Below are positions 1 through 57,849 of a stretch of DNA of 64,000 bases, piece by piece; within the stretch, counting starts at the first letter, position 1; every line of letters starts with the position of its first letter. The stretch covers positions 25,410 to 89,409 of the forward strand of contig SCQF01000006.1 in NCBI GenBank assembly GCA_004321905.1. The letters are read 5' to 3'. Under the pieces are notes generated by a model. That model did not search any database and was not told the DNA's origin. It saw only the letters and a program-made list of their open reading frames with translations. The stretch comes from Verrucomicrobiota bacterium. Its GTDB lineage: Bacteria; Verrucomicrobiota; Kiritimatiellia; CAIQIC01. The translations under genes were made by a program, and so were the position numbers.

Positions 1-756
1 TTCGGCATAACCGATGGCTTGGCGCGCGGTGGCGGAAAGCTGCGGGAATTTTTCACGCAAGCGACGGGCTTCGGCGAGCAATCCTTGTGCAAACATCAGT
101 TGCACTCTAGTCCGAATTCGTTCGGCAAGCAACGCCGGCGGGAGACGCAAACCGACGATCGTCCGGCTGACCGCTGACGGCTGACCGCTGACGGCTTCCT
201 CTTCCGAGGCTTGGAAATCGGAACCGTCGCTTTTTCCAAGGCTTGGAACTTCGCGCGCAAGCTCCAGCGCGCGGATCAAGCGGCGCGGATTTTGGCGGTC
301 GGATTCCGTCAGCGCGGCATAGCGCACGGGATCAAGTTGCTGCAATTTTTCTTGAAGTTCGGCGCGGCTCATTTTTACCGCCGTAGCGCGCCACGCGGGA
401 TCGGCGGCGGGCTGCGCCGTCAGCCCGGTCAGCAAACATTTGACGTAGAGGCCGGTGCCGCCGACGATGATGACCGGCTGGTCGGCGGCGCGCGCCGTAG
501 CGAGGAATCCCCGCGCGTGCTCGATCCACGCCGCAACGTGGAACTCTTCGTCCGGGTTGACCAAATCCAGACCGCCATAACGGATGTGGCCACGCTCGGC
601 GGCGGTCGGCTTGGCGGTGCCGATATCCAGGCCACGATAGACGAGCATGGAGTCGGCGGAGAGGATGACGGCGTTCAGTTCCCCGGCCAGTCGCTGGGCG
701 ACCGCGGTTTTGCCGGTAGCCGTCGCGCCGACGAGCATGAAAGCTTCATGTCGCGT
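1..756 (-). CDS. miaA: tRNA dimethylallyltransferase MiaA (partial; C-terminus beyond window edge)
   Basis: Manual minus-strand translation from the ATG at 754-756 gives MAATRHEAFMLVGATATGKTAVAQRLA...ILSADSMLVYRGLDIGTAKP..., with the P-loop and DSMxVYRGxDIGTAKP motifs of MiaA. The frame is open to position 1, so it is absent from the ORF track. It contains an in-frame palindromic element at 202-249. Confidence 0.8.
202..249. repeat. paired palindromic element (TTTCCAA-N4-TTGGAAA core), inside miaA CDS
   Basis: TTCCGAGGCTTGGAAA, 13-bp spacer, then TTTTTCCAAGGCTTGGAAC. In frame in miaA, where it encodes VPSLGKSDGSDFQASEE. Confidence 0.8.
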
Positions 757-1246
757 TGCCGCCATGGGAAGAAGTCTTGAGCGCCTGATCATTTAGCGGA
801 TGCCCGGCCACCCAAAGCGAGGACAGCACGTAGAGGAACACACCGACGCAGATCGCTGAATCCGCAACGTTGAAAACCGGAAAATGGTGACCGTGCCAGA
901 AAAAGTCGAGGAAGTCGGTCACGTAGCCGAGCTTGATGCGGTCGCAGACGTTGCCGAGGATGCCGCCGGCGAGCAGGCCGAGCGCGAGGCGGTGTTCCCA
1001 GCCATCGCTCAAAAATGCGCGGCGGAAAATCACCATCACCGCCAGCACCACCACGGAAAGCGCGGCGAGCCAGAGATTCTGCCCGCCCAACATGCTCCAC
1101 GCGGCACCGGTGTTGCGCAGATAGGTGAAGTGGAAAACCGATGCGATGATGGGCCGTGATTCGCCCAGCGCGAACACGTCGCGCACCCAGTGTTTGCTCG
1201 CCTGGTCGGCCACCGCAATCAGTAAAGCCCATAACCAGACGCGCAT
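746..1246 (-). CDS. lspA: lipoprotein signal peptidase II
   Basis: ORF 746..1444. The internal start MRVWLWALLIAVADQASKHWV...NTGAAWSM...FNVADSAI is LspA-typical; the upstream 66 aa are probably not translated. Confidence 0.8.
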   Translation of the reverse strand: MRVWLWALLIAVADQASKHWVRDVFALGESRPIIASVFHFTYLRNTGAAWSMLGGQNLWLAALSVVVLAVMVIFRRAFLSDGWEHRLALGLLAGGILGNVCDRIKLGYVTDFLDFFWHGHHFPVFNVADSAICVGVFLYVLSSLWVAGHPLNDQALKTSSHGGNAT

Positions 1247-1284
1247 ATTTTGCTTTCCTGCCGCTGTGTTCCGCCACAGCGGGA

Positions 1285-1899
1285 TCAGCTTTCGGACGTC
1301 TCCACCGCTTGGGAAATGGTTTTCCCGAACGGGCGATAGTGGGTCCGCCCGCGCTCGGCTTCGGACTGGCACTTGATGCACATCTTGGCGAACGGCTGGG
1401 CCTTGAGCCGCGGCATGGCGATCATCTCGCCGCAACGTTCGCACGCGCCGTAGACGCCCATTTCGATGCGCCGCATCGCGTCATCAATTTCGTAGAGCGC
1501 ATCTTGTTCGCTGCTGACCAGGTTCAGCGCGAATTCGCGGTCGAAATTATCCGTGCCGTGATCGGCCATGTGGAAGCTGTAACTGGAGAGATCGCCAGAA
1601 GATTCGCGCTGCGAGCGGTTCAGGTTGTCGCCGGCGAGAAAATTGATTTCGTCCACCACGCGGTCACGCAACTTCTGGAGATGCGCACGAAACTCCTTCA
1701 ACTCCGCCACCGGCCATTTGACCCGCTTGGGTTGCACCACTTCGTCGGCCGGCGTCACCTTGGGCTTCGCTACGCTCTTGGCCGGCGGCCGCGCCACGGC
1801 CTTGGTGCGTTTGGCGTGGGGCTTCGCCTGGGTCGCCGGTTTGGCGGCTTTTTTCACGGTCGTCTTGGCTTTTTTTGTGGCCATAAATCCACTCCTCAA
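1285..1899 (-). CDS. DksA/TraR family C4-type zinc-finger protein with Lys/Ala-rich N-terminal extension
   Basis: C-terminal CERCGEMIAMPRLKAQPFAKMCIKCQ zinc finger and a coiled-coil region. The N-terminal KKAKTTVKKAAKPATQAKP tail is low-complexity. Confidence 0.7.
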   Translation of the reverse strand: MRSGFMATKKAKTTVKKAAKPATQAKPHAKRTKAVARPPAKSVAKPKVTPADEVVQPKRVKWPVAELKEFRAHLQKLRDRVVDEINFLAGDNLNRSQRESSGDLSSYSFHMADHGTDNFDREFALNLVSSEQDALYEIDDAMRRIEMGVYGACERCGEMIAMPRLKAQPFAKMCIKCQSEAERGRTHYRPFGKTISQAVETSES

Positions 1900-2034
1900 A
1901 CCTTTTCGTCCGCCGCGCCATAGCTCGCCGAACGAAAAGAGCGGGGGCTTTTACCAGAACCCCCTTACCCTGTCAATGAAATCACAGCCACGCAAAATAA
2001 ATACCGGGAAAAGCGCCGGTTGGCTGCACCTGAG

Positions 2035-2295
2035 CTAGTGTGGGGGCTCAACGACCATCATGTGCGTACTGGCCGGCCGCACATGCTTTTTGTTCTGCTC
2101 CAGATAGTGCCGGACGGTGCGATACGACACCAAACCCAAGGCCAGCATGATGAATAAAATGACCACCGTCCAATGCAATACCGGATGCGGACGGGGCGGA
2201 TTGGTCTGCACCGGTGGTGTTTCCGTCCATTGAAACGTGATCTCCGGCTTGATCGGTTCGCCCTTTTCATCCAACAGGGCAACAAAGGATCCCAC
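2035..2295 (-). CDS. small hypothetical membrane protein
   Basis: 86-aa ORF downstream of pheS with one hydrophobic helix (WTVVILFIMLALGLVSY). No recognisable family. Confidence 0.25.
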   Translation of the reverse strand: MGSFVALLDEKGEPIKPEITFQWTETPPVQTNPPRPHPVLHWTVVILFIMLALGLVSYRTVRHYLEQNKKHVRPASTHMMVVEPPH

Positions 2296-2349
2296 TTTTT
2301 AATCTTTCGTTCCCAGCGCCCGACCTGCCCTCCGCTTGGTCCGCCGACC

Positions 2350-56601: not shown

Positions 56602-57000
56602 TTACCAGACATAGCACAACACTTCGCCGCCGACGTTCTGCTTGCGCGCCTCACGGCCCGTCATCAGACCTTTGGAGGTGCTCAGGATCGCCGTGCCCAT
56701 CCCGCCCAGCACGCGCGGAACTTCCGCCGCGCCCGTATAACGCCGCAGCCCCGACTTCGAGACGCGTTTCAAACCTTGGATGACCGGCTTATCATTCACG
56801 CCGTAACGCAGTACAACTTGAATCGTCTTTTTGACGCCCGTGCCTTCAACCACATAATTTTTGATGTAGCCTTCCTGCTTCAGGAGGCGGGCCAGTTCGC
56901 TTTTCAGCACCGAATGCGGCACCGCGACCTGTTCCAGCCCGGCGGTGGCGCCGTTGCGCACCCGCGTCAACATATCGGCAATTGGATCACACAAACTCAT
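56602..57000 (-). CDS. rpsH: 30S ribosomal protein S8
   Basis: MSLCDPIADMLTRVRNG... Confidence 0.9.
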   Translation of the reverse strand: MSLCDPIADMLTRVRNGATAGLEQVAVPHSVLKSELARLLKQEGYIKNYVVEGTGVKKTIQVVLRYGVNDKPVIQGLKRVSKSGLRRYTGAAEVPRVLGGMGTAILSTSKGLMTGREARKQNVGGEVLCYVW

Positions 57001-57021
57001 GCTTTCTTCCTCTCCGCTGGC

Positions 57022-57207
57022 TTACCAGCTCGCCTTGGTCACGCCCGGCAGTTTCCCTTCCAGCGCCAGTTCGCGGAAGCAAATACGGCACAGTTGGAAC
57101 TTGCGCATATGCGCGTGACGCCGCCCGCAACGCTTACAACGGTTGTACCGCCGCGCGCTGAATTTCGGCTTCCGTTCCGCCTTCACCATCCATGAAATCT
57201 TGGCCAA
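57022..57207 (-). CDS. rpsN: 30S ribosomal protein S14 type Z (zinc-binding, 61 aa)
   Basis: [47 protein letters not shown] contains the CxxC...CxxC motif. Confidence 0.8.
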
Positions 57208-57230
57208 AGTCGTCTCCTTCCTTTACCCTA

Positions 57231-57773
57231 TCACGCCGCCGCAAACGGCATTCCGAGCAGCTTAAGCAGCTCCTTCATTTCCGCATCCGTCTTCGCCGTC
57301 GAGACGAACGTGACATCCATGCCCTGCGTCTTCTTCACCTGATCGGGCCGGATTTCCGGGAACAACGTCTGTTCCTTCAAGCCTAACGAATAATTTCCGC
57401 GCCCGTCGAAGCCGCGTAACGGAATGCCACGAAAGTCGCGAATACGCGGCAGCGCCGCGGCAATGAGCCGCTCCAAAAAGTCATACATCCGGGGACCGCG
57501 CAACGTCACCCGCGCGCCGATCGGCATGTTCTCGCGCAGCTTGAAGTTCGAGATGCTCTTGCGCGCCTTGCGGATTTGCGCCCGCTGACCGGAAATCTTC
57601 GTCAGATCCTCAGCTACGTTTTTGATCACGTCGCGCTCGGCATCCGCATGCACCGCCATGTTGATCACAATCTTGGTCAACTTCGGCACCTGCATGACGT
57701 TTTTATAGTGCCCCGAGGCGACCAGCGCCTTGACCACATCCGTTTTATACTTCTCTTTCAATTGCCCTGCCAT
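57231..57773 (-). CDS. rplE: 50S ribosomal protein L5
   Basis: MAGQLKEKYKTDVVKAL... Confidence 0.9.
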   Translation of the reverse strand: MAGQLKEKYKTDVVKALVASGHYKNVMQVPKLTKIVINMAVHADAERDVIKNVAEDLTKISGQRAQIRKARKSISNFKLRENMPIGARVTLRGPRMYDFLERLIAAALPRIRDFRGIPLRGFDGRGNYSLGLKEQTLFPEIRPDQVKKTQGMDVTFVSTAKTDAEMKELLKLLGMPFAAA

Positions 57774-57795
57774 GGAATCATCTCTCCTGCGCGCC

Positions 57796-57849
57796 GTTTT
57801 CCAAGGTTTGGAAAATCAGCCCGCCGTTGTTTCCAACCCTTGGAAAACC
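57796..57849. repeat. paired palindromic element between rplX and rplE (intra-operon)
   Basis: GTTTTCCAAGGTTTGGAAAATC, 10-bp spacer, then TGTTTCCAACCCTTGGAAAACC. Confidence 0.8.

Follow-up and report, generated by a model that had tools for sequence, protein, structure and literature searches.

Extragenic palindromes located at gene 3′ ends, frequently in pairs, are well described as the REP and BIME elements of enterobacteria, and in Escherichia coli they have roles in termination, in mRNA stability and in the binding of proteins (IHF, gyrase). Sites with a perfect dyad, conserved half-sites, fixed spacing and a free spacer, which can also form arrays, are found in phased operator pairs (paired ARG boxes) and in parS, NBS and matS. 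Closer still in some respects are the REPINs of Pseudomonas fluorescens and others, which occur as hundreds of extragenic copies in lineage-specific families, the unit being a doublet with a fixed distance that forms a hairpin (Bertels & Rainey 2011, PMC3116915). REPINs are copied by RAYT transposases; the distance between their two REPs is perfectly conserved, the spacer less so (PMC3116915), and a RAYT gene beside the REPIN clusters is their defining feature (PMC3116915; bioRxiv 10.1101/119735). Here we describe a family of short palindromic doublets found in a 64-kb stretch of a metagenome-assembled genome (MAG) of the Lentisphaerota. This stretch, G000:C48:25410-89409, is called the window in the following; its source genome G000 measures 2.53 Mb in 85 contigs, is 94% complete and has a GC content of 0.59. 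We see about an even chance that the doublets are a genus-specific extragenic family which acts at transcript 3′ ends, probably through recognition by a sequence-specific factor.

The core of the repeat is a perfect 15-bp palindrome, TTCCAA-N3-TTGGAA, which is commonly extended to 17 bp by its flanks and then reads TTTCCAAG-S-CTTGGAAA. The invariance of the TTCCAA and TTGGAA arms is a consequence of the search definition. Next to the arms, T prevails at the two adjoining 5′ positions (91% and 73%) and A at the two adjoining 3′ positions (91% and 69%), and beyond this T/A extension of the palindrome we saw no conserved flanks. The central trinucleotide is of the form G/S/C, in most cases GGC or GCC. 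The centre positions look unpaired, as ACC and GGT variants are common and a fully palindromic A-S-T centre is rare. In the window there are 27 exact copies and 36 when up to one mismatch is allowed, against 0.18 ± 0.41 in dinucleotide shuffles. An earlier note on the window had described an abundant conserved palindrome, mostly paired at about 31–32 bp from centre to centre. This was borne out, far above chance; the core given at the time, TTTCCAA-N4-TTGGAAA, has no match in the 64-kb window, with none expected, and has to be replaced by the core above. Our recount yields 22 loci, for which the note gave at least 21. Of these, 14 are doublets, with 32-bp spacing in 13 and 21-bp spacing in one, and eight are singles, whereas the note had fifteen pairs; the span from 202 to 57845 agrees. 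Between two 17-bp units we measure 15 nt, equal to 17 nt between the 15-bp cores, and not the 9–13 bp that had been proposed.

Genome-wide the exact 15-bp palindrome occurs 856 times, whereas a first-order Markov model predicts 0.17 copies. These copies group into 638 loci. Exact doublets number 212, and the spacing is 32 bp in 194 and 31 bp in 13 of them; triplets were seen three times. Moreover, 247 of the 423 apparent singles (58%) have a degenerate partner with up to four mismatches at a distance of 31–32 bp to either side, compared with about 4% of random positions. This makes the doublet the elementary unit, and many singles are what is left of a decayed one; counting the degenerate partners there are about 460 doublets in G000, with a centre-to-centre distance of 31–32 bp. 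Arrays of three to four units also occur and hold the same period. The 15-nt spacers are GC-rich and mutually unrelated, with a mean pairwise identity of 0.485 versus 0.474 after column shuffling, so that the spacer is indeed free in sequence as the earlier note had stated. Since the units are perfect palindromes, their orientation is set by the centre base alone. In the doublets this base shows a dyad symmetry: the left unit has G in 138 of 207 cases and the right unit C in 130 of 207. The middle bases of the two units are complementary at a frequency of 0.589 versus 0.525 (p = 0.02); the outer positions of the centre show no such excess. Identical centres in both units are rarer than chance (46 versus 62.8). 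This pattern fits a doublet that behaves as a single symmetric unit.

For gene prediction we used a simple codon model trained on the genome itself, which gave 2026 genes and a coding fraction of 86%. Only 89 of 714 17-mers (about 12%) lie deep within well-scored genes, whereas random placement would put about 60–70% there; thus about 88% of the loci are extragenic. As a side observation, the 89 in-gene copies favour reading frame 2 and encode peptides of the form FQ(G/A/T)LE(K/N). At 227 loci the element is found within 25 bp past a stop codon, and the unit most often begins 1–13 bp after the stop. The stop codon usage at these ends equals the genome average. Per kilobase of intergenic DNA there are 1.53 loci between convergent genes, 1.14 between tandem genes and 0.58 between divergent genes. 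In tandem gaps of at least 100 bp it is the upstream gene whose 3′ end carries the element, which does not lie beside the promoter of the downstream gene. In 60 kb of the window, U-tract terminators of the canonical kind are no more frequent than in shuffles (76 versus about 76), and since they occur at background rate another 3′-end signal may be needed. This suggests that the lineage uses 3′-end signals other than canonical intrinsic terminators, which may be rare there. The unit itself has an AT-rich 7-bp core stem and is not followed by a U-tract, and thus lacks both the GC-rich stem and the U-tract of a canonical intrinsic terminator.

Among the relatives searched, the motif is abundant only in one genus, g1, whose members are lake and groundwater MAGs of the Lentisphaerota; G000 stems from a groundwater metagenome of 2019. 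In the remaining genera of the order there are 0–10 copies. In this search the members of g1 gave 380 sites for G000 (150/Mb), 694 for G001 (131/Mb), 219 for G002 (33/Mb) and 62 for G003 (8.6/Mb). An extrapolation to thousands of copies per genome, as made in the earlier note, is too high for G000 with its 856 copies; it has the right order of magnitude when the genus as a whole is taken, and applies only to the larger members. When genome contigs were scanned for the motif, the matches came mainly from MAGs labelled uncultured Lentisphaerae bacterium (LaPlata-15m-a bin-260, Loclat bin-07389 and LJ bin-4696), and these three also bear 31-bp doublets. The period in G001 is divided between 31 bp (21 doublets) and 32 bp (17 doublets). 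Searches with blastn and 250-bp flanks mostly failed to locate orthologous positions because of intergenic divergence, but tblastx on the coding ends worked. By this approach both G000 and G001 carry the element at 13 of 115 orthologous 3′ ends, where about six would be expected if the two were independent. In the retained doublets that we inspected as examples, the units are kept and the spacers have diverged, which argues for a constraint on the units and against mere recent copying. The gene that ends at 42729 has an ortholog in G002 with a four-unit array of 32-bp period at its 3′ end. At 48131-48200 the motif stands inside a longer GC-capped palindrome, GGCCG-TTTCC...GGAAA-CGGCC; G002 and G003 have such a palindrome, with TTTCC/GGAAA arms, at the orthologous 3′ end. 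The orthologous blocks of the window from 30 to 50 kb break in G001–G003 at intergenic regions that bear elements, and elements at such synteny breaks between congeners may mark rearrangement points.

Two readings had been offered for the palindromes in the earlier note, hairpins selected for their structure as in REP/BIME or an array of sites for a dimeric protein. Both are still the right ones to weigh, but selection for structure has lost ground. Doublets do fold into long hairpins (mean ΔG −23.3 kcal/mol, z = −5.65), which is to be expected because both units are self-complementary. Compensatory double changes numbered 10 within units (10.6 expected) and 37 across the paired units of the doublets (44.7 expected), in neither case an excess. 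The sequence of the unit is conserved, not merely its pairing, and selection for hairpin structure alone was rejected for want of compensatory covariation within or between units. There is a wider variant in which RNA structure works without a specific factor: the hairpin of a unit or doublet at the mRNA 3′ end would serve as an I-shaped terminator lacking a U-tail or as a barrier to 3′-to-5′ exonucleases, and the exact sequence would be kept for historical reasons. The location at 3′ ends, the stable hairpins of the doublets and the lack of enrichment of canonical terminators agree with it. A constraint on structure only would, however, permit the stem to drift as long as pairing stays, which is not what the compensation counts reflect, and the 7-bp AT-rich core stem without U-tract counts against it as well; we hold this variant to be unlikely. 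Another way to keep a sequence exact is DNA uptake. The uptake sequences DUS and USS are asymmetric, have a large share of their copies in coding sequence in preferred frames and often stand at gene 3′ ends as inverted pairs that act as terminators. Like the DUS of Neisseria and the USS of Pasteurellaceae, the present motif is genus-specific, present in high copy number, exactly conserved and found at gene ends, so that it could serve natural transformation as a tag by which self DNA is recognised; biased uptake and recombination would then maintain it, and its use as a terminator would be a by-product. ComEC is present, which tells little as this protein is nearly universal. In contrast to uptake sequences the units are perfect palindromes and mostly extragenic, with only the small coding share given above, and we regard an uptake role as very improbable.

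A further alternative is a non-autonomous mobile element like the REPINs. The doublet would be copied by a transposase of the Y1/RAYT type, either present in G000 or lost from it, the position at 3′ ends would reflect insertion preference or tolerance, and any host function would be secondary. The high copy number confined to one lineage and the 17-fold variation of density within the genus speak for this, and so does the fixed period with a less conserved spacer, as in REPINs (PMC3116915). Element sites also coincide with synteny breaks, and G000 does encode two Y1 transposases, P0001 and P0002. The earlier argument that conserved arms and a fixed spacer length do not look like a copied element does not hold, as REPINs, although copied by RAYT, also fix their spacing (PMC3116915); a spacer of fixed length is thus not enough by itself to rule out mobility. 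The argument against such an origin comes instead from the unrelated spacers, the missing link to a RAYT and the doublets kept at orthologous ends with diverged spacers. Together these argue against recent copying. P0001 and P0002 are flanked by palindromes of their own, different from the motif, and the motif is not clustered beside any Y1 gene. The copy-richest genome, G001, has only weak Y1 matches, whereas Y1 reading frames of about 330 aa are found in motif-free genomes of the same order. The compensatory spacer or hairpin changes that REPINs show (PMC3116915) are not seen either. With the REPINs the family has in common the doublet at fixed spacing with an unrelated spacer; it has no single-copy RAYT flanked by REPs of the same family, and without a RAYT beside the motif clusters membership fails at this defining feature. 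REPs are moreover imperfect and stand in inverted copies, whereas here each unit is a perfect palindrome of 15–17 bp, and it begins 1–13 bp past a stop codon. With the enterobacterial REP/BIME elements the family shares its extragenic place at gene 3′ ends; the REPs of E. coli are about 35 bp long, imperfect and of different sequence, the BIME linkers vary in length where the spacing is fixed here, and the BIMEs are tied to TnpA_REP, for which we found no counterpart linked to the motif. The family resembles REP/REPIN doublets in layout and probably in working, and not clearly in origin, and we regard a mobile origin as possible but doubtful.

We therefore return to the reading of a doublet family recognised at transcript 3′ ends. 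A sequence-specific factor is favoured over hairpin stability alone by the exact conservation of the units without compensatory changes, by the fixed spacing with a free spacer and by arrays which keep the period. We suggest the following picture. The basic unit would be two 17-bp palindromes separated by a 15-nt spacer of free sequence, with their centres about three helix turns apart. Placed 1–13 bp past the stop codons, the doublets would work where transcription units end, and by analogy with REP, BIME and REPIN elements their most likely role would be to end transcription or to protect the mRNA 3′ end. The most probable factor would be a dimeric protein bound to each palindrome, with both dimers on the same helix face. 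A more specific version, which we put forward as tentative and rather unlikely in its entirety, takes the doublets as phased sites for a putative genus-specific dimeric DNA-binding protein, two dimers of which would sit three turns apart on one face past the stop codons and form a roadblock that ends transcription in a lineage making little use of U-tract terminators. The known phased systems differ in that paired operators, parS, NBS and matS are few (tens) or regional, whereas here hundreds of sites are spread over gene 3′ ends throughout the genome and the binding protein is hypothetical.

Several points weigh against a function at 3′ ends with a dedicated factor. The 17-fold range of density within the genus is as compatible with proliferation as with function. 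No candidate for the binding protein was found, and no proteome-wide search for one was made. The tests for compensatory changes are low in power, with about ten expected events, and the pattern of centre bases at the doublet level is of modest significance. Gene starts are uncertain under the simple codon model; we note, however, that the anchoring at 3′ ends uses stop codons, which are reliable. If the putative function is true, the family would be a clean natural system to separate selfish copying from host function in REP-like repeats, as its sequence is conserved without structural covariation, its spacing is fixed although the spacer varies freely, and it has no link to a transposase. 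It would further represent a lineage-specific way in which the Lentisphaerota, with their apparently scarce canonical terminators, define the 3′ ends of transcripts. The three-turn phasing renders the binding-protein model directly testable.

Individual loci of the window are as follows. Between convergent genes, the doublet at 39049..39095 starts 6 bp past the stop of the plus-strand gene 37583-39043, at a position where synteny with G002 and G003 breaks, and the one at 42743..42789 starts 14 bp past the stop of the plus-strand gene 42181-42729. Minus-strand genes are followed by doublets at 3362..3408 (directly past the stop of 3444-4265, in a tandem intergenic region), 22624..22670 (gene 22699-23445, one unit with one mismatch), 32719..32765 (about 28 bp past the stop of 32793-33398), 48131..48177 (gene 48211-48711), 51127..51173 (about 16 bp past the stop of 51189-51584) and 57799..57845 (6 bp past the stop of 57851-58135). 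Single units take the same position a few base pairs past the stop of the minus-strand gene 12543-13409 (12521..12535), about 16 bp past that of 16756-19299 (16726..16740) and, with one mismatch, about 10 bp past that of 35166-37577 (35142..35156). The reading frame 35166-37577 also contains a doublet, 36249..36284, which is the one with 21-bp spacing and has one mismatch. The doublet at 10766..10812, with one mismatched unit, lies close to the 3′ end of the predicted reading frame 9791-10882. A doublet at 25922..25968 falls into a divergent intergenic region and was picked up by a generic terminator scan too. The doublet at 7408..7454 precedes the start of a plus-strand gene (about 7398-9722); a degenerate doublet is found at the same place in G001 and none in G002 or G003. 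Retention at the orthologous position was seen for the single units 7010..7024 and 46761..46775 in G001, and for a unit of the doublet 45154..45200, one of whose units has one mismatch, in G001, G002 and G003. The first doublet of the window, 202..248, has 32-bp spacing and one mismatch in its first unit.

Other known classes of repeats were considered as well. A MITE was rejected, in line with the earlier note, as the element has no terminal inverted repeats and no target-site duplications, the spacers are unrelated and the arms alone are conserved. CRISPR arrays have repeats of at least 23 bp with unique spacers in long arrays by cas genes, whereas here 17-bp units with 15-nt spacers are scattered at gene ends, mostly two at a time. 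Carriage by viruses was rejected too: viral contigs gave nine single chance matches, no doublets and a GC content unlike that of the host. The literature searched contains no paper that describes the motif, and searches on Lentisphaerae repeats gave nothing relevant. An Rfam scan of the window returned nothing for the element; the only matches at the gathering threshold were a 6S/SsrS RNA at 34696-34875 on the minus strand (85 bits) and a tRNA at 7273-7345, also on the minus strand.

The two transposases of G000 deserve a short description. P0001 is a single-copy IS200-like TnpA of the Y1 type with 150 aa, located at G000:C36:72997-73870, and its match to the NCBIfam model transpos_IS200 (53.3 bits) is just below the cut-off of 55 bits. 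It is flanked by a private palindrome, CCTAGGG-N4-CCCTAGG, which has three copies there and none elsewhere in the genome. P0001 and its palindromes look like a RAYT/IS200-like unit with a small REP family of its own. P0002 lies in the window at 29715-30173 on the minus strand and is a Y1 transposase of the IS200/IS605 family with 153 aa and an HWH motif. Its ends are imperfectly palindromic and of the IS200 type, TAGGAGCCC...GGGCTCCTA, and are unrelated to the repeat family. As the enzyme that propagates the doublets both were rejected in view of their own palindromes and of RAYT-like Y1 proteins which are present in motif-free relatives and weak in G001. Finally, the GC skew is negative throughout the window (1-64000), with the cumulative skew falling steadily to −1.24, and the window is thus probably located on one replichore.

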